Assembly (NCBI GenBank): GCA_038227435.1
Contig: JBBRPW010000001.1
Location: forward strand, 9,632-73,631
Length of the DNA: 64,000 nucleotides
Reading direction: 5' to 3'
Source: Minisyncoccia bacterium
GTDB taxonomy: Bacteria > Patescibacteriota > Minisyncoccia > Phycocordibacterales > CALRBL01
Part shown: one piece after another, positions 2,545 through 53,912 of the stretch
Numbering within the stretch: position 1 is the stretch's first letter
Layout of the letters: each line of letters starts with the position of its first letter
Translations under genes and position numbers: made by a program
Notes under the pieces: model-generated
Database searches by the model: none
Seen by the model: only the letters and a program-made list of their open reading frames with translations
Told to the model about the DNA's origin: nothing

Positions 2545-3453
2545 ATGAATCGTTCGTACTTTTTAGGTTTATTTGTTGGATTATGCATAATCGGTGCTTT
2601 TTTCTATGCATCACGTGTAATTGGAGAAACCACAATAACAAATGTATATACAAATCCGGCCGTTACACAAAATTTGTCTAACTCTCGCCCTGGGCAGCCT
2701 ATTCGTATTATTGAACCAGCGGAAGGCAATGATTATTCAGAATACCCCTATCTTTACCCCGTTACTTTGGGTTTACGTTTAGGAAATACGGGAAATCCAG
2801 TGAGATCGCTACAGGTAATATTAAATAATGACTCTGATACACAGGTTGGAGCGCGTGGAGCTGGGTCAGCCGGCTTCGAAACCACATCGTTTGGCTCAAA
2901 AACCAGACTTGCTTTATTGAAATTTCAACGAAAATACGCCTTATTTCAAACAGGATATGTAGATTTGGCAACATTTAATAAAATAAACCTTCTATTAAGT
3001 GGGGTAGATACTAATGCAACAAGTACCGCGGCGACACTGATTGGTCAAGCTGCAAATGCACCCCAAAGTGTATTCAGTAATTATTTTTCAAACTACCCCT
3101 CTAGTCTTAATGGACCCACAATTACAACTGTTACCCCTACAACTGTTCATGACGGAGACACTGTAACAATTACAGGCACTGGTTTTTTGGATTTAAATAA
3201 AATAACTACCGGATTCGATCATTTTGATGATGTTCCATCAACAGACGGTAGAACAATTACCTTTGTGTTTAGAAGTAGATTGCAGACTGATACGAACCGG
3301 CAAATCGCAGCATCAGGTAATTCAAGAAGACAATCTGAAGTAAGGGCGGCGTTCGAAAGATATACCGCAAATCGCCCATTTCCTTTTTTCCTTATGGTTA
3401 GTAATGGAAATGGAACAAGCAATACCTTTAGAGGTATATTTCAACTTAGATAA
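2545..3453 (+). CDS. Secreted protein with a putative peptidoglycan-binding (PG_binding_1-like) segment.
   Basis: N-terminal TM helix. The motif TRLALLKFQRKYALFQTGYVDLATFNKI resembles the PG-binding domain 1 consensus. Confidence 0.5.
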   Translation: MNRSYFLGLFVGLCIIGAFFYASRVIGETTITNVYTNPAVTQNLSNSRPGQPIRIIEPAEGNDYSEYPYLYPVTLGLRLGNTGNPVRSLQVILNNDSDTQVGARGAGSAGFETTSFGSKTRLALLKFQRKYALFQTGYVDLATFNKINLLLSGVDTNATSTAATLIGQAANAPQSVFSNYFSNYPSSLNGPTITTVTPTTVHDGDTVTITGTGFLDLNKITTGFDHFDDVPSTDGRTITFVFRSRLQTDTNRQIAASGNSRRQSEVRAAFERYTANRPFPFFLMVSNGNGTSNTFRGIFQLR

Positions 3454-16251: not shown

Positions 16252-16326
16252 GCACCCGTGGTGAAATGGATATCACAACAGTCTTCGGAACTGTTTTTGT
16301 AGGTTCGAGTCCTGCCGGGTGCACCA
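16252..16326 (+). tRNA. tRNA-Arg (anticodon TCG), CCA encoded.
   Basis: Manual fold: acceptor GCACCCG/CGGGTGC, D stem GTGA/TCAC, anticodon stem ACAGT/ACTGT with loop CTTCGGA, T arm GTAGG-TTCGAGT-CCTGC, 3' ACCA. Confidence 0.85.
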
Positions 16327-16341
16327 GATAGGGTAGAGTGA

Positions 16342-16412
16342 GCGGGTATGGTTTAGTGGTAGAACACGTCCTTGCCAAGGACGAGTCGAGGGTTCGATTC
16401 CCTCTACCCGCA
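16342..16412 (+). tRNA. tRNA-Gly (anticodon GCC); CCA not encoded.
   Basis: Acceptor GCGGGTA/TACCCGC, anticodon stem CGTCC/GGACG with loop TTGCCAA, T arm AGGGTTCGATTCCCT. Confidence 0.85.
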
Positions 16413-16567
16413 CTAGGAACGAGTATAAAACAAAACGAAGTTTTGTTTTATCGAGTGACGACGTACGGGGAAGACTGGCTCTCCTGAGCCAGGCTTACAA
16501 GCACTAGGAGTTTGTCAAAGACAAACTCCTCAAAATCCCCTAAACTAACGGACCAATATAAGACAAC

Positions 16568-16576
16568 TGTGGATAA
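16568..16576 (-). promoter_or_regulatory. Perfect DnaA-box 9-mer (TGTGGATAA on the + strand).
   Basis: Exact reverse complement of TTATCCACA, lying between tRNA-Gly and the yraN-like gene. Confidence 0.3.
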
Positions 16577-16747
16577 CTACGGGGATATGTGCTTAAAAGA
16601 CATTCTAAATATCCTTATTCTTAGCCAAATGACTTTTATAATCGACATTAAGGAGCACTTTATAAAACATCATTTTTACCCATATATTTATACCTTTTTT
16701 ATAATTTCTTAATTAAAATTTTACGTATAGTATTCCAAAATCGATGA

Positions 16748-17188
16748 ATGAAATTAAAAGACATTGGTAGATATGGGGAAGCTGTCGCTAAATACTATTT
16801 TAAAAATAAGGGATATACATTCCTATCCGCAAACTTTCAAATAAGTGAAGGGGAGATTGATTTAATTTTTAAAAAAGACAATGAAATCGTTGCGATTGAA
16901 GTAAAGGCCTCAGTTATTCCTGGGAATAATGTTTTTAGTTATGAATACAGCCCAATTCAGAAAATAAATAGATTAAAACTTCATAAAATCAAAATTACAT
17001 TGTGTCACTTCATTAAAAAGCATCACCAATATAGATATTTCAACAAAAGGGTAGATTTGATAGGGGTTAGAATTCTTTCACGAGTATCCTCAGAAGATTT
17101 TAAGAATTTGAAAACTATAAGTGAGGCAATTAAGTTAAATCTCTTTAAAAACATCTTTATTACGCATATTCCCAATGTAATTTGGTAA
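16748..17188 (+). CDS. yraN: YraN/UPF0102-family predicted endonuclease.
   Basis: GRYGEAVAKYYFKNKGYTFLSANFQISEGEIDLIF...IVAIEVKA matches the UPF0102 core. Confidence 0.7.
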   Translation: MKLKDIGRYGEAVAKYYFKNKGYTFLSANFQISEGEIDLIFKKDNEIVAIEVKASVIPGNNVFSYEYSPIQKINRLKLHKIKITLCHFIKKHHQYRYFNKRVDLIGVRILSRVSSEDFKNLKTISEAIKLNLFKNIFITHIPNVIW

Positions 17189-17232
17189 AAATTTCATGGC
17201 TTTTTTGAATCATTATGCTATGCTCCTTGTAC

Positions 17233-17305
17233 CGGAGTGTAGTGTAACGGCTAACATTCTTGATTTGGGATCAAGCGACTCAGGGTTCGAATCCCTGCAC
17301 TCCGA
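17233..17305 (+). tRNA. tRNA-Pro (anticodon TGG).
   Basis: Acceptor CGGAGTG/CACTCCG, anticodon stem CTTGA/TCAAG with loop TTTGGGA, T arm CAGGGTTCGAATCCCTG. Confidence 0.85.
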
Positions 17306-17336
17306 CAAGTTTAAGTACTAATAAAGATTCAAAAAT

Positions 17337-17642
17337 ATGGCTTTCATTAAAAATGTGGAAGATTTTAAGTGTGAAAAATGTGGAACCGATATAAAAGGCG
17401 ATGGTTTCACTAACCATTGTCCTAATTGTTTATATAGTAAGCACGTCGACAACGATCCGGGGGATAGGAAAAATACATGTGGTGGCTTAATGAAGCCAAT
17501 TGCCTATATTAAAATGAAAGAGAAGGAAAAAATTACTCATCAATGTTTAGTTTGCGGCGAAGAGAAAAATAATAAAGTTTGCCTAAATGATAGTAGGGAA
17601 GCAATGGTTACTATGATTAAAAATGGAATTGAAGAGAATTAA
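17337..17642 (+). CDS. Small Cys-rich zinc-ribbon protein, RNHCP-domain-like.
   Basis: CEKCG...FTNHCPNCLYSKHVD...CGG...CLVCG; the xNHCP motif resembles the RNHCP family. Confidence 0.5.
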   Translation: MAFIKNVEDFKCEKCGTDIKGDGFTNHCPNCLYSKHVDNDPGDRKNTCGGLMKPIAYIKMKEKEKITHQCLVCGEEKNNKVCLNDSREAMVTMIKNGIEEN

Positions 17643-17709
17643 TTCCAAATAAAGCTCTGGATTGAAATATCTCTAGTATTTGCTACTATCTTCATACAAA
17701 CAAATAAAT

Positions 17710-17780
17710 GCGGGATTGGTTTAGTGGTAGAATGACTGCCTTCCAAGCAGTAGACAAGGGTTCGATTCCCTTATCCCGCA
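17710..17780 (+). tRNA. tRNA-Gly (anticodon TCC).
   Basis: Acceptor GCGGGAT/ATCCCGC, anticodon stem ACTGC/GCAGT with loop CTTCCAA, T arm AGGGTTCGATTCCCT. Confidence 0.85.
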
Positions 17781-17904
17781 CAAGACATGAACAGTTTGAG
17801 ACGGCTCGCTGTCTCAAACTAGTGAATGGCGCAGTGCGGGGCAATGTCCGCACTAGGAGTGAAACTCCTTCTCCTTCTTTCCATATTTTTTAATTTATTA
17901 AATA

Positions 17905-41676: not shown

Positions 41677-41696
41677 GAGACTTATATAATAAAAGA

Positions 41697-41738
41697 TACC
41701 CCGATCGCACAACGTGCTGCGATCGGGGTATTTGGTTT
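41697..41738 (+). terminator. Rho-independent terminator ACCCCGATCGCAcaacgtgcTGCGATCGGGGT + TTTGGTTT.
   Basis: 12-bp perfect GC-rich stem followed by a T-rich tail. Confidence 0.6.
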
Positions 41739-42326
41739 AGACCCCGTGGTCTTTTACTCCGAGAACGATAAGGTATTGCCCTTCGCGTTCTCGAACGATT
41801 TCATTGGCCTACCCCTCGGGGTAGAAAATAAGGTGTGTTTACTAGTCAGACATACTATTTTTCCTTCGGTCGGGGTTCTCTCTAACAAGGTTTGGATTTT
41901 GAGGACAGCTTTTAGCTACTAGTCCCAGCCAACAGCCGATTCGGGCGCTGTTGGCTGGGACTTTCACTTTCGGCTAGTCGCCCATATTACCTCCTTGTTA
42001 AGGTTCGGGAATCGTTCATAAGCAAGAGCGCTAATGAATTTCCAAATAAAATTTAGCATAATAAAATTGGTCTGTCAACATGTTTTAACTAAATTGAGTA
42101 TATTTGATCAATTTTATATAAAATAAGGCTATGAATATAGCTTCAATAGTGTTTTTACTTGTTATTGTCGGTTTTTGTGTTTTGACACCTGAAAAATACT
42201 ACAAAACAAATATTTTTTAATGCAATTAATGTAGTTTTATGTCATATCTAATTTACATATATTGTATATAATATCCTTATTTATCAATACTATAATGGAA
42301 TATTAAATTTAATCTGTCATAAACAC

Positions 42327-42354
42327 TTGACAAAAATATAAATATCCGTATTAT
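42327..42354 (+). promoter_or_regulatory. Sigma70-like promoter TTGACA-16 nt-TATTAT driving the island's + strand transcription.
   Basis: Consensus -35 and near-consensus -10 with 16-nt spacing, about 200 nt upstream of the first island ORF. Confidence 0.4.
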
Positions 42355-42478
42355 CTTTCTCAGTTAGAACTTTTCACCTCAACCCCCAAAGAACAATGCG
42401 TTACTACGTGCTCCCCGACGGGACCGTGGTGATCAACCCCTCTGACGCCTACTAAGGCGTTACGGGATGATCCCACTT

Positions 42479-42530
42479 CTGCGGCTTAGGCACGCGGGGG
42501 AATAATGCACCCTGGCAACAGAATCGCATC
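42479..42530 (+). repeat. Repeat family R1, copy a (CTGCGGCTTAGGCACGCGGGG...CCTGGCAACAGAAT), in the 5' leader of island ORF-A.
   Basis: A 21/21 identical block plus a 14-nt block shared with copy b at 43777-43828. Confidence 0.55.
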
Positions 42531-42561
42531 CACTAAAACATCACCCTAATTTTTTACAACT

Positions 42562-42843
42562 ATGAAAAAGATCGTGATCGGAATGATGGTCGTTCTCGCT
42601 CTACTCTTGTCGTTTGTTGCAGGTGTCTTCTACGGCACCAACGCAACTATCGCCAAGATGGAATTGCTGGAAACCCCCAGAGGCCGCATTCTTTACTACT
42701 TCATTCCGAATACATCTGCTTCGACAGAAATTTATTCGCTTGATAGTGGAGAAGATGCTGATCTCTACGAGGATTCAACACAAATTCCTGACGAAGACGT
42801 GACTGAGAGGAAAGACTCTCTGAAGGACGACACTAACCTTTAA
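42562..42843 (+). CDS. Island ORF-A: small membrane-anchored protein with an acidic C-terminal tail.
   Basis: 93-aa ORF. TM helix IVIGMMVVLALLLSFVAGVFYG. The last 14 codons and the stop lie inside repeat R2a. Confidence 0.4.
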   Translation: MKKIVIGMMVVLALLLSFVAGVFYGTNATIAKMELLETPRGRILYYFIPNTSASTEIYSLDSGEDADLYEDSTQIPDEDVTERKDSLKDDTNL

Positions 42844-42897
42844 TTCAAAAGTGTTTATTTTTGCGACCGTTTTAAATGGTTGGTTGGCGTGCAGCGC
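42801..42897 (+). repeat. Repeat family R2, copy a (97 nt), immediately upstream of HHR1.
   Basis: 94 of 97 positions identical to copy b at 45769-45866. Contains hairpin GAGAG-gaaaga-CTCTC. Confidence 0.7.
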
Positions 42898-42935
42898 TAA
42901 GAGAAAACTTTAAATCCTAACTATAAAAAGTTAGA

Positions 42936-42987
42936 TCTGTCTCGAAATGTAATTTCGACTGATGAGCTCTAGAGAGCGAAACAGAAA
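42936..42987 (+). ncRNA. Hammerhead ribozyme, type III topology (HHR1).
   Basis: TCTGTC|TCGAAATgtaATTTCGA-CTGATGA-GCTCtagaGAGC-GAAA-CAGA. All core nucleotides present (C3-A9, G12-A14, A15.1-U16.1, GUC cleavage triplet). Three stems fold as required. Confidence 0.75.
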
Positions 42988-43436
42988 GTACTTTAAAACC
43001 AAGAAAAATAATAAAAGTTAAATTCGTCTGCACTTGAGAGTGTTTTTAAAAATATTCTCACGTGCAGGCGAAAGTAGCGCCAAAGCATGTGATCGGTAGT
43101 ACACATTTAAATCTTGAGTGAGTGTCTCGGATTTAAGTGGAGTTGTACTACGTATTAATTCATCACCAAAAAAATGATTAGTGGGATGTTCTGATTGTTC
43201 TCGTACGCCTCGCGAGAGACCAACAGTCAAAATGTCACATCATTTGAGTAGGGACAAGCAGTTCGTTGCTGTGCACCGAACTTTGATGAATTATGGCTGT
43301 GAACGATCTGAGGTGAGTACCGCAAGGTAACTCAGTTTGATCTAGTAATAGTTATGGGGAAAGCGCATAAGGCTTGGTCGCCAAGTGTGTATTACCTGCT
43401 ACAAAATTTCTAAACCTCAACCAAAAAAGAATTACT

Positions 43437-43772
43437 ATGGCACATTACAGTACTTTTATTTTTCAGTTGCCAGGATGTCCCGAGATTTATATGAGTACTC
43501 GGTACAACATTATTCAGGACTTTGATTGCATTCGAAATAAGTTTGGAAAGGGGTTGATTAAGTTCAAACCTTTCTACAAGCCTGATCGAGTGCAATTTAC
43601 TCCTCCGAGTAATGGAGAAAAGCATCCTTGGGTATTGCTGACTAAATATCAGCGTAGGAAGATTCAAACCTTCCTCAATGTGGTCTACCGAAAGGGAAAC
43701 CACAGGGTACCTCGGAGATGGCGCAAGTTCGTAAAGAACGACGGCGTCTTTCCAAAGGAGTGTCTCGACTGA
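43437..43772 (+). CDS. Island ORF-B: small basic protein (R/K-rich C-terminus).
   Basis: 111-aa ORF from ATGGCACATTAC; no homologue recognised. Confidence 0.35.
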   Translation: MAHYSTFIFQLPGCPEIYMSTRYNIIQDFDCIRNKFGKGLIKFKPFYKPDRVQFTPPSNGEKHPWVLLTKYQRRKIQTFLNVVYRKGNHRVPRRWRKFVKNDGVFPKECLD

Positions 43773-43776
43773 GCAA

Positions 43777-43828
43777 CTGCGGCTTAGGCACGCGGGGTAC
43801 ACATACTACCTGGCAACAGAATTGTATG
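43777..43828 (+). repeat. Repeat family R1, copy b. It follows the ORF-B stop and precedes HHR2.
   Basis: Shares CTGCGGCTTAGGCACGCGGGG and CCTGGCAACAGAAT blocks with R1a. Confidence 0.55.
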
Positions 43829-43857
43829 AAACTGACTAGTAATTATTTACTAGTCAC

Positions 43858-43909
43858 TCTGTCTCGAAATGTAATTTCGACTGATGAGCTCTAGAGAGCG
43901 AAACAGAAA
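43858..43909 (+). ncRNA. Hammerhead ribozyme, type III (HHR2), 52/52 identical to HHR1.
   Basis: Same sequence as HHR1, preceded by the 9-bp palindrome GACTAGTAA-ttat-TTACTAGTC. Confidence 0.75.
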
Positions 43910-44304
43910 TACATTAAAAATAAAATAATTTCTTTACACCTCATCCGGCGTTTATTTGCGGCACGAAAATAACCACGCAAACAAAAAATGTGGAAACCCG
44001 CTAGACGCTGGTTGAGGTGTAATGAACAAAAAATATAGGTTGCTAGTTAACCTGATCCGAGGAGCTCTGGTTTTCCATAAGGAAAACTAAAACTTTCGGG
44101 CTTTAGTGGGGCAAGCAACGTAACGCCGGATGCGTACGTGTGAGGCCAAAAGCACAAAAACTACTTGTTTGCCCAGCTATCGGGGAATAAGCGTCGTTCG
44201 TGGTACGGCGTTATGAGCATAAGTATCAAAATCTCCGAAGCCATTCGCCCTTAAGGGTGAAATGGTTCTAGTGAGGAATTTTGAGAACGTTCTCTAACAA
44301 CCAC
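43910..44304 (+). ncRNA. Roughly 395-nt ORF-free, highly structured spacer between HHR2 and HHR4. Candidate large structured RNA of unknown class.
   Basis: Long-range inverted repeats TTACACCTCA/TGAGGTGTAA and CATCCGGCGTT/AACGCCGGATG. Local hairpins GTTTTCC-ataa-GGAAAAC and CCATTCGCCC-ttaa-GGGTGAAATGG. No ORF over 40 codons on the + strand. Confidence 0.35.
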
Positions 44305-44357
44305 TTTGTTTATCGATGTGTTTCGATACTGAAGAGCTCAAAAGAGCGAAACAGAAG
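44305..44357 (+). ncRNA. Hammerhead-like ribozyme variant (HHR4): CTGAAGA core (position 7 = A), GUU cleavage triplet, short stem III.
   Basis: TTTGTT|TATCGAtgtgttTCGATA-CTGAAGA-GCTCaaaaGAGC-GAAA-CAGAAG. Position 7 is tolerant and U17 is permitted but weaker. Confidence 0.5.
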
Positions 44358-44393
44358 ATCTTTAAATTTCAGCAACTTCAACCCCCTAAAAAA

Positions 44394-44699
44394 ATGCAAA
44401 ACCCATATGGTTCGGAGAAGCAGTTGGAAACCACCGAACAGCAGATCGACCGCCGTGTCGCGCTCAGTGTCCTCGAAGTGAGCTACCATTTTTGGGGCGC
44501 ACTTCGGGGTGGTGGCGAACGGGCCGCTGCGAACCTTTTGAACAGTTTGAAAGGTGCAGCACCACGCGGCTACTACTTCACTGTCTCGGCAGATAGGGAG
44601 TGGCGTCCGCGTGCAAACAAAGACGGAACGTTCGAGTTCCGCCGCCTGTTTCAGCCCCGAACCAACACTGTCGCCATCATCGGATTGGCAAGACGATAG
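44394..44699 (+). CDS. Island ORF-C: hypothetical protein.
   Basis: 101-aa ORF starting at ATGCAAAACCCA, directly downstream of HHR4. Confidence 0.35.
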   Translation: MQNPYGSEKQLETTEQQIDRRVALSVLEVSYHFWGALRGGGERAAANLLNSLKGAAPRGYYFTVSADREWRPRANKDGTFEFRRLFQPRTNTVAIIGLARR

Positions 44700-44719
44700 T
44701 GCCGGAAGGGTTGAAACAC

Positions 44720-44830
44720 ACGTTAAGAGTCACCGTAAAAAACTCTGGTCTGATCCACTAACAACGATCACTCGTTTATCGTATGCGAGCTTCAAAAAAC
44801 GTTCGGGTCCGCCCGTGATAGCGGCGTCGG
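44720..44830 (+). repeat. Repeat family R3, copy a (about 110 nt), followed by hairpin GGGGAAtttatTTCCCC.
   Basis: About 93% identical to copy b at 46431-46540. Some differences are compatible with conserved pairing (AACGA/TCGTT versus AATGA/TTGTT). Confidence 0.65.
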
Positions 44831-44916
44831 TAGGGGAATTTATTTCCCCACTTTATTGAGCCTGTCACATTCGGTGATTGGTTCATCAAGTTCGTTCTTT
44901 TCAAAAAAATAAAAAT

Positions 44917-45330
44917 ATGAAACTTAACGTCAAGGCTATCCGTAGTTTTGTGCTTAGTCAGGTAGTGGACAAGGAAGAGTCAGAAGCACTCATCTTTTAT
45001 TTGGCTGGCATCAATGCCGAATTCTATCTCGTAGATCCTCACACCTGCGGAGAAGAAGCAGGAGAGATTGGCTTCATGGGTTTCAACTTCACCGACAAGG
45101 TGAATGATGCAATGAATGCTGGTCTTTGGGCTGTGATTTACGACGATGGGCGCGATTATGCTTACCATAAGTACTTCCTTTTCGAGGAAGACGCTAAAAG
45201 TTTTGCAAATCGGGTTGGTGGAGGCTTATTGAAGTACACCAACACTGCAAATCGGCTGAAAGTTATTGCCCACTTTAGAAAGTTGGGCTTAATCGAAGAA
45301 GTTCCTGAAGAAGAAGGAATTCTCGAATAA
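44917..45330 (+). CDS. Island ORF-D: hypothetical acidic protein.
   Basis: 137-aa ORF from ATGAAACTTAAC. Confidence 0.4.
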   Translation: MKLNVKAIRSFVLSQVVDKEESEALIFYLAGINAEFYLVDPHTCGEEAGEIGFMGFNFTDKVNDAMNAGLWAVIYDDGRDYAYHKYFLFEEDAKSFANRVGGGLLKYTNTANRLKVIAHFRKLGLIEEVPEEEGILE

Positions 45331-45463
45331 CTTTAAGTCAATTCATATACGTTCTGCATAACGTAAAAAATGTAGCTGTTTTGCTCAATATGCGTGCAAG
45401 AAATTGCATGTCGACATATTGGCTTCTTCAGTGAAAAAAGAAGGTAAGAAAGGAGGATCAACA

Positions 45464-45760
45464 ATGATCATCGACCTTTCTCTTCGTAATGAGCGCCTGT
45501 ACAAGGGTTGCGAAATTACGGAGGTGGCAGGCCGGCTGAACTTGGTTACTCCAGTTGCTGATGCAGTTAATATCGTTGGCCGCAACGCCAATGGGTTGAT
45601 TGCAGAAGTTGCTGCGAGTGATCGGAGCGAAGTCGAGCTTACGGGTCCGATGGCGGTTTGGTCTTACTTGATCGTTTTCCACGCTGTGGTTCACGCCTTT
45701 TCGAAGGTGTACTACAACGATGGGAAAGGTCGGGTACTGATCGCCGCCCACGGCGCCTGA
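45464..45760 (+). CDS. Island ORF-E: hypothetical protein preceded by a strong Shine-Dalgarno.
   Basis: AAAGGAGGatcaacaATG gives a canonical SD at optimal spacing. 98-aa ORF (MIIDLSLRNERLYKG...). Native genes in this window generally lack an SD. Confidence 0.5.
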   Translation: MIIDLSLRNERLYKGCEITEVAGRLNLVTPVADAVNIVGRNANGLIAEVAASDRSEVELTGPMAVWSYLIVFHAVVHAFSKVYYNDGKGRVLIAAHGA

Positions 45761-45768
45761 TGCCATCT

Positions 45769-45866
45769 GACTGAGAGGAAAGACTCTCTGAAGGACGACA
45801 CTAACCTTTAATTCAGAAGTGTCTATTTTTGCGACCGTTTTAAATGGTTGGTTGGCGTGCATCGCT
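45769..45866 (+). repeat. Repeat family R2, copy b, non-coding here, immediately upstream of HHR3.
   Basis: Near-identical to R2a. Confidence 0.7.
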
Positions 45867-45890
45867 GACGGATAGATGTTCTATCCGTCA

Positions 45891-45942
45891 TCTGTCACAG
45901 GGTATTACCTTGTCTGATGAGTTCAAAAGAACGAAACAGAAG
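45891..45942 (+). ncRNA. Hammerhead ribozyme, type III (HHR3), a sequence variant of HHR1/2.
   Basis: TCTGTC|ACAGGGTattACCTTGT-CTGATGA-GTTCaaaaGAAC-GAAA-CAGAAG. Full conserved core. Preceded by hairpin GACGGATAG-atgtt-CTATCCGTC. Confidence 0.7.
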
Positions 45943-45970
45943 ATCTTTCAAAACTCCACAAATAATTTTT

Positions 45971-46204
45971 ATGAATAATCATTCGAAAGAATTGGTATGT
46001 GTTCGAGTGATTAATGTATGCGCATCCATTAAAGGCTCTTTTGGATTAGGTCACTTTATAAAAGTCGATCTGTCTGGAGTCAGTGATTGGTATATATACT
46101 GCTCAAAAACTAAACCAATTGTCGGACAAGAAATTTCCATGTTTCTTACTATGTACGGCAAATGGACATGTCTCGATGACAGAGACAATGTCGAATCATT
46201 TTAG
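45971..46204 (+). CDS. Island ORF-F: small Cys-containing hypothetical protein directly downstream of HHR3.
   Basis: 77-aa ORF from ATGAATAATCAT. Confidence 0.3.
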   Translation: MNNHSKELVCVRVINVCASIKGSFGLGHFIKVDLSGVSDWYIYCSKTKPIVGQEISMFLTMYGKWTCLDDRDNVESF

Positions 46205-46430
46205 TCGAATTAAAACCCTATGATCAACATCATCAAATCTACTCGCTATAAGGTGAGTGGCTTCATTCGTAACTGCGTTAAAAACCCTCGCACGAGCTGG
46301 AAGCTGCGGAAGCAATTGGCTTCTCGCAGCATGCGTCGCCTCGATCGAAAGGTGATCGCTGCAACGGATGTTGAGGAGCATTCGTCGTGTGTCGTATACA
46401 ATAACTTCCTGGGCTATCCGTAGCAAGGAA

Positions 46431-46540
46431 ACGTTAAGAGTCAACGTAAAAAACTCTGGTCTGATCCACCAACAATGATCACTTGTTTATCGTATGCGAG
46501 CAACAAAAAACGTTCGGGTCCGCCCGTAATAGCGGCGTGG
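46431..46540 (+). repeat. Repeat family R3, copy b, ending at the island's terminal terminator.
   Basis: See R3a. Confidence 0.65.
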
Positions 46541-46542
46541 TT

Positions 46543-46570
46543 AAGAGGAACATCAGTTCCTCTTTTTTTA
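46543..46570 (+). terminator. Rho-independent terminator AAGAGGAAcatcagTTCCTCTT + T8.
   Basis: 8-bp stem followed by a T run. Confidence 0.6.
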
Positions 46571-46615
46571 TTTCTAAATCAAATTAAGTTAAAATTTATA
46601 AACCTACTTATTAAT

Positions 46616-47053
46616 TTATTTATCGAGCTCTGAAATTATTTTTTGAGCAATATCTTCTTTTTCTCCATCTTTATAAATAATATGTTCACCATATCTCATA
46701 CTCACTCCTTTATAACGAGGGATTAAATGTGCGTGTATATGTAATATTTCCTGGCCTCCATATGAGCGATTGTTAATGAGTAGATTTACTCCATCAAGTT
46801 TAAGAGCATTCTCTAAAACGTTTGCCACCCTTTTAACTCCTTTCATCATTGTTCCAAAAAGTTCTGTGTCGATCTGAAATATGTCGTCAGCATGTGTTTT
46901 TGGAATAATAATTGTATGTCCTAAGGCAAGAGGATTAATATCGAGGAATACAAAGACATCTGCGTCTTCATAAAGCTTTGTTGTGTTAACTTCTCCTGTA
47001 ATCATTTTGCAAAAGATGCAATCTTTATGGGTTAATTCGTTATTCATGGCCAT
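46616..47053 (-). CDS. HIT-family (histidine triad) nucleotide hydrolase.
   Basis: HIHAHLIP histidine triad motif. Confidence 0.85.
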   Translation of the reverse strand: MAMNNELTHKDCIFCKMITGEVNTTKLYEDADVFVFLDINPLALGHTIIIPKTHADDIFQIDTELFGTMMKGVKRVANVLENALKLDGVNLLINNRSYGGQEILHIHAHLIPRYKGVSMRYGEHIIYKDGEKEDIAQKIISELDK

Positions 47054-53474: not shown

Positions 53475-53912
53475 TTGCCTCAATATAGTAATTTGAGTCC
53501 GGAAAGACACATCAACCCCAACTCTCATTTCATGGCAAGTAAAACCGATCCTTTAACGTCACTCATTGAAACCATATTTCACCAAGACGGCTACACCCTT
53601 TATCAACTAGGAGAGGGTATGTATGTCGTGGCAAAGCTGCCACTTCGTATTCGAGATACGTACCGTCCGGAGCCCACAACGATTCATATCACTTGGAACC
53701 CTCTTCTTTGGAAATATGGAAATAACAATCCTGAAAATTGTTATCTCCGAACTGCGGTGACCTATATAAGACCAGATCACCTCGAGCAAGATGATACTCT
53801 CATTAATTTCCTTCGGAGAACTTTTACCCCACTTAAGCCCGGACTAGAGTTTTTTACGGCTCAACCGGAGTTAACAATAACCTCCGTTGTTGCGCCGAAT
53901 TCTCTTGGGTAA
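53475..53912 (+). CDS. Hypothetical protein; ORF has higher G+C than the surrounding genome.
   Basis: 145-aa ORF. Composition clearly differs from flanking genes. No family recognised. Confidence 0.3.
   Translation: MPQYSNLSPERHINPNSHFMASKTDPLTSLIETIFHQDGYTLYQLGEGMYVVAKLPLRIRDTYRPEPTTIHITWNPLLWKYGNNNPENCYLRTAVTYIRPDHLEQDDTLINFLRRTFTPLKPGLEFFTAQPELTITSVVAPNSLG

Follow-up and report, generated by a model that had tools for sequence, protein, structure and literature searches.

What is the function of a non-coding sequence that occurs twice on the same strand of a bacterial chromosome, each time between the end of a reading frame and a transcription terminator? This question is raised by a 64,000-nt stretch of the genome of a Minisyncoccia bacterium (the window in what follows), in which a repeat that we term R3 was described in an initial annotation as a candidate structured RNA of the 3′ untranslated region. 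The repeat itself, given there as 110 nt in two copies of about 93% identity, is borne out. R3a (44720–44832, + strand) and R3b (46431–46543, + strand) are identical at 104 of 113 positions (i.e. 113 nt at 92%) in a repeat search of the window, and blastn aligns them over 108 nt at 93.5% identity. They differ by nine substitutions (in the order a/b these are C/A, T/C, C/T, C/T, T/A, T/A, G/A, C/G and G/T) with no insertions or deletions. A profile made from the two copies matched just R3a and R3b within the window (E ~1e-43), the next match having E 0.39. The repetition is far above the level of chance.

R3a is 113 nt of untranslated sequence lying between a hairpin and the stop codon of ORF101 (44394–44699, + strand), starting 20 nt past the stop. 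R3b starts 7 nt past the stop codon of ORF67 (46220–46423, + strand). The identity has a sharp 5′ boundary at ACGTT, and the upstream ORF101 and ORF67 are unrelated. On the + strand both copies lead straight into a terminator-type hairpin, and the R3 core (92%) is far better conserved than these adjoining hairpins, which have diverged strongly.

The hairpin 3′ of R3a (44833–44849, + strand) has the sequence GGGGAA-UUUAU-UUCCCC, forming a 6 bp stem of ~−10.4 kcal/mol that is followed by ACUUUAUUG. The 6 bp stem plus ACUUUAUU passes a terminator scan, but the U-tract is interrupted, so that this is probably a weak or leaky terminator. The intrinsic terminator 3′ of R3b (46543–46573, + strand) comprises a 9 bp stem, AAGAGGAAC-AUCA-GUUCCUCUU at 46543–46564 (~−12.2 kcal/mol), with a U-rich tail; here the scan found the 9 bp stem plus UUUUUAUUU. 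A GC-containing hairpin followed by a U-tract, as expected of an intrinsic terminator, is therefore present. The strong hairpins proposed to follow both copies are thus found, although the run of eight T claimed for the second is one of seven consecutive T, two of which lie inside the stem; the stem is followed by U5AUUU.

R3b is the last element of an island ahead of its terminator. The island is ~4.9 kb in length (~41735–46570), is GC-richer, and lies between host TrmB-like and HIT genes. It contains four hammerheads, three repeated non-coding families (R1, R2 and R3) and mostly orphan ORFs. The earlier placing of R3b at the right edge of the island agrees with the base composition, for the GC content falls from 45–47% to 35–38% after ~46570, and the converging HIT gene ends at 46616. 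From its sequence the island looks like a single + strand operon formed by a phage-derived gene cluster, of which the R3b terminator is the predicted end as well as the right edge of the island. A candidate operon promoter at 42327–42354 (+ strand) is proposed from its consensus match alone (TTGACA-16-TATTAT, 11 of 12 consensus positions). We note that the organism has been found in only one sample, and that at 90% identity even its PGK and RecJ form singletons.

The hammerheads were located on the + strand by motif pattern with stem checks and by covariance model. They are HH1 (42933–42988, predicted cut after 42941), HH2 (43855–43910, cut predicted after 43863), HH3 (44302–44358, after 44310) and HH4 (45888–45943, after 45896). 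HH1 and HH2 scored 40.3 bits (E 2.4e-06) and 41.9 bits (E 8.4e-07) against Rfam; against Hammerhead_3 HH4 scored 40.1 bits (E 2.8e-06) and HH3, with a GUU triplet and a CUGAAGA core, 23.8 bits (E 0.0027, in a 131-nt search), so that all four scores (24–42 bits) fall under the gathering threshold of 48.5 bits. Nevertheless, each has the intact CUGANGA...GAAA core, a UH cleavage site and stems I, II and III of a type III hammerhead. In 28 related hammerhead copies (27 distinct viral-contig and L046 sites, L046 being a related locus) the sequence of stem I varies while its pairing is kept. HH2 and HH1 are 97% identical across 63 nt, and HH3 and HH4 have an extended 38-nt match in common. The four are spaced by 0.4–1.6 kb on the same strand; two of the stretches between them have few ORFs or none and show very strong structure, and the predicted products include ORF-free RNAs of ~450 nt flanked by hammerheads. 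HH3 is the predicted 5′ end of an RNA bearing ORF101 and R3a, and HH4 would similarly begin an RNA bearing ORF77, ORF67 and R3b.

The other two repeat families are found in comparable positions. R1a (42479–42524, + strand) is 85% identical to R1b (43777–43822, + strand), which lies between the stop codon of ORF111 and HH2. R2a (42800–42898, + strand) is located immediately 5′ of HH1 and takes in the final 44 nt of ORF93. Its partner R2b (45768–45866, + strand), of 97% identity, is non-coding and placed between the stop codon of ORF98 and HH4. Both families recur in similar slots in related elements. L046 has a homologue of R2 (E 3e-09) that is non-coding and is placed after ORF98 and before a hammerhead, while in a second related locus, L069, a homologue of R1 (E 5e-05) occupies the slot between stop codon and terminator hairpin that is filled by R3 in the window. 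The counterpart of this slot in L046 is ~12–18 nt of unrelated sequence. R2 is thus partly coding in one case (R2a, at the end of ORF93) and non-coding in two others (R2b and its homologue in L046), which shows that the boundaries of modules take no account of reading frames. The conservation of R1 and R2 across elements is close to that of coding sequence, which hints that 3′ modules of this kind may do something specific.

The hairpin that follows R3a corresponds by position to the first hairpin (hp1) of a conserved intergenic module. The rest of the module (44850–44916, + strand) consists of CTTTATTGAG (44851–44860), a hairpin (44861–44881) and the leader GTTCTTTTCAAAAAAA up to the ATG of ORF137. 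Six instances were found in the window, L046 and L069, the hairpins of which keep their pairing while differing in sequence; this applies to the hp1 slot of L046 and L069, where hairpins of different sequence are found.

Of the proteins encoded in the island only that of ORF98 (45464–45760, + strand, with a strong Shine-Dalgarno sequence) has relatives. It is 98 amino acids in length and has at least 700 homologues of 57–79% identity but no Pfam family; homologues are found in a phage early/recombination module in the locus L070 and on 12 IMG/VR contigs. ORF101 is an orphan, matching itself alone among 5.8 billion clustered proteins and no family in Pfam or PHROG. ORF67 is a doubtful gene; a protein search gave no homologue (its own sequence was also absent from the results), and comparison with the other island ORFs revealed no paralogy. 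A protein search with ORF137 gave no relatives, and its AlphaFold model has a pLDDT of 42.

We now consider whether R3 could be a functional folded RNA, i.e. a structured 3′ domain of a new type, an element bound by protein, or a ribozyme that accompanies the hammerheads and has escaped recognition. Self-cleaving ribozymes and structured motifs often cluster, conserved pairs of motif and terminator exist (PMC5737381), and the R3 core is conserved beyond its flanks. Yet compared with dinucleotide shuffles the R3 core gave z-scores of +0.88 (R3a) and +0.23 (R3b) on the + strand and +0.88 and +0.50 on the − strand, changing to −0.64 and −1.73 when the hairpins were included, whereas nearly all other parts of the island are strongly structured (z of −2.6 to −6.3, with segments that reach −5 to −6). 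The minimum-energy folds of R3a and R3b differ in 52 base pairs. When R3b was threaded on the fold of R3a the energy was −7.3 kcal/mol, compared to −13.3 ± 4.1 kcal/mol for random mutants carrying the same number and type of changes, so the real substitutions suit that fold worse than 92% of the mutants. The reciprocal threading of R3a on the R3b fold gave −16.9 compared to −13.9, a value equalled by 26% of mutants. Four small hairpins can be drawn by RNAalifold for the pair of sequences with just one substitution falling in a stem, but this apparent avoidance of stems is circular, both sequences having gone into the derivation of the structure.

The change from AACGA/UCGUU to AAUGA/UUGUU, proposed to preserve a helix, is formally compatible with pairing in that it creates two wobble pairs, but the energy of the helix rises from −2.1 to +2.5 kcal/mol. 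The changes are two separate one-sided C-to-U substitutions, and the helix is not predicted in R3b. The C/A difference between AGAGUCACCG and AGAGUCAACG, previously assigned to a hairpin arm, is instead located in the loop of a predicted AGAGU/ACUCU hairpin. Just one change is compensatory on both sides (G-C to A-U), and it belongs to the terminator hairpin and not to the R3 core. The suggested comparison with Rfam matched no family; a scan of 5.5 kb against the whole of release 15 (including hammerhead, twister, twister-sister, pistol, hatchet, hairpin, drum and skipping-rope) had nothing over R3 at E ≤ 10, and a search with 171 nt alone gave noise of 9–12 bits. Likewise a covariance model made from the two copies found nothing in 419 kb of related loci. 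R3 as a folded RNA is thus unsupported by every test run, and we regard this explanation as unlikely. Of the structured 3′-UTR element initially proposed, the 3′-untranslated position is supported for both copies while the structure is not. Two further candidates were rejected. A degenerate hammerhead in R3 (GUC - 18 nt - CUGAUCC) has no covariance model support and its core G8 and A9 are replaced, and pairing of the hammerhead leader at the 5′ end with R3 at the 3′ end is at best equal to that of shuffled sequences.

One reading frame is open through both R3a and R3b. In R3b it is the frame of ORF67 and contains an ATG, and there are two A-AAA-AAC heptamers in each copy, so R3 might encode protein, be it a small ORF or an addition to the C terminus reached by read-through or frameshifting. 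But the nine substitutions lead to seven amino acid changes, and for this reason R3 is not a conserved coding sequence; translation in a conserved frame had been envisaged in the initial annotation as the contrary outcome, and is not what was observed. Relative to the upstream ORF a +1 shift would be required for R3a and read-through of the stop codon for R3b, the open frame passes through the terminator hairpin, and the translated peptides match no family in Pfam or PHROG. Translation of R3 is scarcely credible.

The shared open frame would also be expected of a gene remnant. R3 might then be a neutral recombination scar, i.e. what is left of the 3′ part of an older gene or UTR, duplicated along with a cassette end and having no function of its own. 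The nine substitutions are evenly spread with no bias toward any fold, and R2a shows that module boundaries can fall inside reading frames. On the other hand an open frame of ~46 codons is not unusual, being expected by chance at an estimated ~0.1 per frame, the peptides have no match in Pfam or PHROG, and a core that has remained 92% identical next to strongly diverged hairpins is not readily explained in this way. The absence of R3 homologues from all the collections searched is in keeping with a scar. Scans of viral contigs, genomes and metagenomes employed exact 17- to 21-mers, from which homologues below ~85–90% identity would escape. Four blocks of R3, one of them a gapped pattern of two blocks, were scanned for in viral contigs and gave no homologue, with three chance matches in the last of these scans. 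With an 18-mer there were five chance matches, on the wrong strand, in 185,579 species-representative genomes and 17 in JGI metagenomes, in all cases with agreement confined to the seed. No homologue was found by blastn against phage and plasmid collections, nor by nhmmer and the covariance model against 78 fetched loci. Around ORF98 homologues relatives of R2 and R1 were found but none of R3. Taken together, we consider the scar rather unlikely.

Could R3 act as DNA? The two direct copies are 1711 bp apart around a gene block and R3b lies at the edge of the island, so they might bracket an excisable or exchangeable segment of 1.7 kb (ORF137 to ORF67) in the manner of att or attC sites. This is highly improbable. 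No integrase, transposase or recombinase domain was detected with Pfam and PHROGs in the seven island ORFs scanned, there is no copy of R3 at the left edge of the island, and divergence of 8% is unlike that of freshly formed att sites. Moreover the order of elements is R1a, R2a, HH1, R1b, HH2, HH3, R3a, R2b, HH4, R3b, so that R3 is interleaved with the other repeats in a mosaic and not nested. An integron attC site or a MITE was rejected, as the copies and their flanks have no core sites, terminal inverted repeats or target-site duplication; R3 begins GTTAAGA, which departs from GTTRRRY. Comparison of the two island edges for att-type repeats gave just an 11-nt A/T-rich inverted match. A template and variable repeat pair of a diversity-generating retroelement was also discarded, as the mismatches are not confined to adenine and there is no reverse-transcriptase domain among the island ORFs. 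R3a as a riboswitch or attenuator for ORF137 was set aside because R3b has no downstream gene.

Each R3 has two A6C tracts, for which no pairing is predicted in either transcript context. R3 together with its terminator might be released as a trans-acting 3′-UTR sRNA, with an accessible A-rich loop that pairs with a target mRNA. The loop of R3a, CCGUAAAAAACUCU, is perfectly complementary to 14 nt (53846–53859) inside a + strand ORF; for R3b the match is 13 nt. However, the estimated probability of a 14-nt A/T-rich match in 64 kb by chance is a few percent before multiple testing, the target search covered this window alone, and the 5′ end of R3 has no promoter or processing site. We think such an sRNA very improbable indeed.

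The explanation we prefer, with a probability of about one half, is that R3 is a reusable non-coding 3′-end module of a phage-derived, hammerhead-cut cassette array. The island would be read on the + strand from the consensus promoter at 42327–42354, and the four hammerheads are positioned for cleavage of the transcript, each at its own 5′ side. Of the RNAs so produced, two would have a common layout of hammerhead (HH3 or HH4), cargo ORF or ORFs, R3 and hairpin, in which R3 occupies the slot from the stop codon to the terminator hairpin. R3 could have been copied with or into this slot by homologous or illegitimate recombination at cassette boundaries. At the RNA level it would serve as a 3′ UTR that spaces the stop codon from the terminator, probably offering the two single-stranded A6C tracts and small local hairpins and not one fold. 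With its hairpin it would set the 3′ end, leaky at R3a and efficient at R3b; a leaky end at R3a would allow transcription to continue into ORF137 and ORF98. It is unnecessary to invoke a tertiary fold, catalysis or ligand binding to explain the observations on R3. We also note that conservation of the R3 core could reflect purifying selection on its sequence and not recent copying, which would count against R3 as a copied module.

A more specific role can be imagined, in which R3 is the 3′ half of a standardised RNA cassette format (a hammerhead 5′-OH end, and R3 plus hairpin at the 3′ end) carrying a sequence-specific handle. Binding of protein or RNA via the A6C tracts would mark these mRNAs for stabilisation, translation or packaging. 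This is distinctly unlikely, but if true it would raise R3 from filler to a novel functional RNA, in a lineage that has hardly been sampled.

On its own R3 is of minor significance, one more case of a non-coding repeat marking a boundary in a mosaic region derived from phage, and we see no evidence for a new class of RNA. Our best reading is that it is a reused 3′-UTR and terminator module, ordinary in kind and of putative function. Its surroundings are of more interest. As an example of an operon punctuated by hammerheads in a bacterial chromosome the island is compact and well delimited, with standardised 5′ (hammerhead) and 3′ (R1, R2, R3) modules and extreme structure nearly everywhere but in R3, and it carries a very widespread, uncharacterised 98-aa phage protein (ORF98). 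With predicted RNA ends flanking each unit, the locus would be a convenient test case for the clustered hammerheads of bacteria (PMC3088659).

How does this arrangement compare with known systems? As in integron cassettes, small ORFs on the same strand are each followed by a non-coding element of ~60–140 nt. But R3 has neither R″/R′ core sites nor an imperfect palindrome, the island has no integrase, three unrelated families of element are present together with ribozymes, and the logic of the transcript is different, being based on hammerheads and terminators. The RNA motifs drum, skipping-rope, DUF3800-I and FuFi-1 have 3′ terminators (Weinberg et al. 2017, PMC5737381) and resemble R3 in being non-coding, ending in a Rho-independent terminator and rarely lying in a 5′ UTR. 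They are, however, defined by many covarying homologues, whereas for R3 there are two copies, in which no conserved fold could be detected.

Clustered hammerheads flank genes in prophages (Perreault et al. 2011, PMC3088659). There, as here, several hammerheads on the same strand surround single ORFs, or short blocks of ORFs, whose identity is not constant, within phage-derived DNA, while repeated 3′ modules like R1, R2 and R3 are not described in that study. The island further differs in its ORF-free or ORF-poor structured stretches, in having no integrase nearby and in the sub-threshold Rfam scores of its ribozymes.

The promoter-early stem-loops (PeSL) of T4-type phages are composite terminator/promoter cassettes proposed to provide homology for the swapping of ORFs (PMC2839356; PMC4122927), in the way suggested above for R3. 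No sequence similarity to T4-type phages was found by blastn. The 113 nt of R3 differ from a PeSL in having no early or sigma-70-like promoter within or beside them on the + strand, and in lying upstream of the stem-loop. The closer analogue here is the hp1-CTTTATTGAG-hp2-TAGAGT module 3′ of R3a, in which the TTGAGN-24/25 nt-TAGAGT spacing is incompatible with sigma-70. Like the PeSL, R3 is nonetheless a short non-coding repeat that bounds unrelated small ORFs in a variable region of phage type and has a stem-loop terminator, and the combination of a repeated intergenic sequence and a stem-loop between unrelated ORFs is common to both.

The window belongs to a bacterial chromosome and not to a phage. 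The island that holds the 110-nt repeat R3 is GC-richer, about 4.9 kb long, and lies between the terminator of a TrmB-type regulator gene (41696-41731) and the HIT gene, the flanking host genes being PGK and the TrmB-type regulator upstream and HIT and RecJ downstream. The host chromosome also carries four clustered tRNA genes (Arg-TCG, Gly-GCC, Pro-TGG and Gly-TCC; 16252-17781, +). The organism is known from one sequencing run, and clustering at 90% identity leaves its housekeeping proteins as singletons. The main part of the island is a single plus-strand unit, running from a near-consensus promoter (42327-42354) to the terminator after the second R3 copy, R3b. With ORFs named by their length in amino acids and the hammerhead ribozymes numbered 5' to 3', the order is promoter, R1a, ORF93, R2a, HH1, ORF111, R1b, HH2, 390 nt free of ORFs, HH3, ORF101, R3a with its hairpin, ORF137, ORF98, R2b, HH4, ORF77, ORF67 and R3b with its terminator. 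Apart from the hammerheads, self-comparison of the island revealed three repeat families, all on the plus strand: R1 (42479-42524 and 43777-43822, 85% identity), R2 (42800-42898 and 45768-45866, 97%) and R3 (44720-44832 and 46431-46543, 93.5% over 108 nt by blastn). These are interleaved and not nested, and there is no paralogy among the ORFs between them.

A repeat search of the window gave R3 as 113 nt at 92% identity, with nine substitutions and no indels in an ungapped alignment, and a profile of the two copies matched nothing else in the window (E ~1e-43; next E 0.39). The identity begins sharply at ACGTT, the preceding 60 nt being unrelated between the copies. Hairpins follow directly, at 44833-44849 (~-10.4 kcal/mol) for R3a and at 46543-46564 (~-12.2 kcal/mol), with a U-rich tail, for R3b. 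Immediately past the latter the GC content falls from 45-47% to ~35%, and the convergent host HIT gene terminates at 46616. The initial annotation was thus correct in the presence of the repeat, in its terminal hairpins and in placing R3b at the right edge of the island. We consider it unlikely that R3 serves at the DNA level as an att-type site.

The suggestion that R3 is a structured 3'-UTR or terminal RNA holds for its position, which is 3'-untranslated and before hairpins, but finds no support as regards structure. Compared with dinucleotide shuffles the folding energy of the core has z +0.88 in copy a and +0.23 in copy b, and the minus strand likewise folds no better than its shuffles; with the hairpins included the values are -0.64 and -1.73. 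Other island segments have z of -2.6 to -6.3, the ORF98 coding region among them, and two host genes +0.1 and -1.5; no segment of the island is less structured than R3. Nearly all segments of the island transcript (42368-46565, +), coding or non-coding, are far more structured than shuffles. Minimum-energy folding gives the two copies structures that are 52 base pairs apart. Threaded on the fold of R3a, R3b has an energy of -7.3 kcal/mol, compared with -13.3 +/- 4.1 for random variants matched to the real numbers of transitions and transversions, 92% of which are at least as good; the reverse threading is unremarkable, being equalled by 26% of variants. The helix AACGA/UCGUU that had been taken as preserved does become AAUGA/UUGUU, but by two one-sided C-to-U changes that create adjacent wobbles; its energy rises from -2.1 to +2.5 kcal/mol, and it drops out of the predicted fold. 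A C/A difference that had been assigned to a hairpin arm sits in a loop, and the sole pair with a genuine compensatory exchange (G-C to A-U) belongs to the stem of the terminator. RNAalifold gave four small hairpins with the substitutions mostly in loops, but this structure carries no weight because it is derived from the same two sequences.

No Rfam family covers R3 at E<=10 in scans of 5.5 kb or 171 nt. A string within R3, GUC-18 nt-CUGAUCC, was considered as a hammerhead and rejected; no model recognises it, and core positions G8 and A9 are absent. Translation of R3 is also unlikely. A single frame runs open through both copies, and there the nine substitutions lead to seven amino-acid changes, so no conserved frame is apparent; translation would require a +1 frameshift in copy a and stop-codon read-through in copy b, and the peptides matched no Pfam or PHROG family. 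No homologue of R3 was found in IMG/VR (four exact-pattern scans), in phages and plasmids by blastn, or in 78 fetched loci by nhmmer and a covariance model, and a scan of species-representative genomes and another of JGI metagenomes returned chance seed-only matches alone. Since the pattern scans need exact 17-21-mers, diverged homologues could have escaped them. ORF101, ORF137 and ORF67 are also without detected relatives.

Four complete type III hammerheads lie on the plus strand. Against Rfam, HH1 (42933-42988), HH2 (43855-43910) and HH4 (45888-45943) score 40-42 bits (E ~1e-06), and HH3 (44302-44358), with a GUU triplet and CUGAAGA core, 23.8 bits (E 0.0027); all are below the gathering threshold of 48.5 bits. 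Hammerheads sharing their stem II and core occur in 17 IMG/VR contigs, where the sequence of stem I varies but always pairs. HH3 and HH4 are mutual closest relatives (38 nt at 89%). HH3 is masked in gene-caller annotation by a supposed 127-aa protein, from a spurious ATG-ORF (44316-44699). From its sequence each of the four is positioned for cleavage on its own 5' side. R3a would form the 3' tail of the RNA that HH3 begins, and R3b that of the RNA begun by HH4. R1b, R2a and R2b, whose ends precede a hammerhead cut by 30-43 nt, would likewise make up the tails of processed RNAs. When both R3-containing RNAs are folded whole by partition function, R3 is somewhat more open (0.44-0.48) than the upstream sequence (0.36-0.38), and both AAAAAAC tracts are predicted unpaired in each.

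The closest relative of the island is locus L046, from a Candidatus Parcubacteria metagenome-assembled genome (MAG), where the order of ORF98, an R2 homologue (E 3e-09) and a hammerhead matches that of the window; three further hammerheads are separated by long ORF-free stretches (z -9.5 and -6.0). ORF98 (45464-45760, +; ~98 aa) alone among the island ORFs has at least 700 homologues (57-79% identity), found in candidate-phyla-radiation MAGs, other bacteria and phage contigs (12 in IMG/VR). It belongs to no Pfam family; an alignment of 32 members has 31 invariant columns, including TGPMAVW and a VVHAF-like motif. The coding regions of its homologues often fold extremely (z -11.4 in locus L071), though not always (~0 in L047 and L057). 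In locus L070 the gene adjoins those of KilA-N/BstA, Rad52, YqaJ and Prim-Pol, an early/recombination module, which argues that the island is phage-derived.

One intergenic module occurs in six instances, at 44833-44916 of the window, ~1784-1873 and 3514-3613 of L046, and ~950-1020, 2455-2530 and 3008-3080 of L069, a locus with the order ORF98, R1 homologue (E 5e-05), hairpin and ACTTTATTGGG. It comprises hairpin 1, CTTTATTG(A/G)G, hairpin 2, (T)TCATAGAGT, AGTTCTTT and the next ATG; both hairpins differ in sequence between instances with pairing kept. The TTGAGN-to-TAGAGT spacing of 24-25 nt exceeds the sigma-70 range, and AGTTCTTT occurs after hammerheads too. The module may be an RNA processing signal, or a terminator/promoter resembling PeSL, the composite cassette of T4-type phages. 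In the window's instance hairpin 1 is the one that follows R3a, so R3 fills an optional slot between stop codon and hairpin 1, which holds R1 in L069 and ~12-18 nt of unrelated sequence in L046. The R1 core, ACGCGGGG - variable hairpin - CCUGGCAACAGAAU, has hairpin variants with pairing kept (GGGG/CCCU, GGUA/UACC and GGCAG/CUGCC) and lies downstream of ORF98 in L069 (2411-2449) and L071 (2368-2386); R1 makes a stronger candidate than R3 for an element of conserved structure. All three copies of R2 lie 15-43 nt upstream of a hammerhead. R2a overlaps the final 44 nt of ORF93, supplying its last 14 codons and stop, while R2b and the L046 copy (653-750) are non-coding; module boundaries are thus set by recombination and not by reading frames.

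Two further stretches are candidate non-coding RNAs. That between the HH2 and HH3 cuts (43864-44310, +; 447 nt) has no ORF >36 aa, z ~-5.8 and no Rfam match. It would be released with 5'-OH and 2',3'-cyclic phosphate ends, as a candidate new ncRNA that hammerheads excise and that may be circularised. L046 has ORF-free, hammerhead-flanked analogues at 822-1326 (z -9.5) and 2716-3197 (z -6.0), and such segments start with a long near-perfect hairpin built on CTGCAC...GTGCAG. At the left end of the island a GC-rich stretch of ~290 nt (41735-42020), without Rfam match, is highly structured (z -6.7 on the plus and -5.3 on the minus strand); a minus-strand promoter-like site (42078-42050, TTGACA-17-TAAATT) is directed into it and the bidirectional terminator at 41696-41731 bounds it, making a candidate ~340-nt ncRNA divergent from the hammerhead operon.

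The reading with most support takes R3 for a 3'-untranslated module that has been reused within a mosaic cassette array of phage origin. It rests on the position, strand and boundaries of R3, the hairpins that go with it, the arrangement of the hammerheads, the interleaving of the repeats and the lack of a conserved fold. A purely neutral sequence is opposed by a core far better conserved than the adjoining hairpins, and by conservation of R1 and R2 between elements at about the level of coding sequence. Because of this conservation we retain a small chance that R3 functions as an RNA that folds or is bound, and a slight one that it is the source of a 3'-UTR-derived sRNA. The latter draws on a 14-nt antisense match (53846-53859, +) inside an ORF (53475-53912), where AGAGTTTTTTACGG is the perfect complement of the R3a loop region CCGTAAAAAACTCT (13 nt for R3b); this probably arose by chance. 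As a cassette module, R3 would act in the RNA as a spacer and tail ahead of a terminator, leaky for R3a and strong for R3b.

The hammerhead-punctuated, hyper-structured island is a more interesting object than R3 itself, and hammerhead clusters flanking single genes in prophages are an arrangement already known (PMC3088659). R3 adds a new example to a known type of element, non-coding cassette boundaries or 3'-UTR-terminator modules that occur as repeats. Its spread, probably by recombination at cassette boundaries, would resemble that of the PeSL terminator/promoter cassettes of T4-type phages (PMC4122927).
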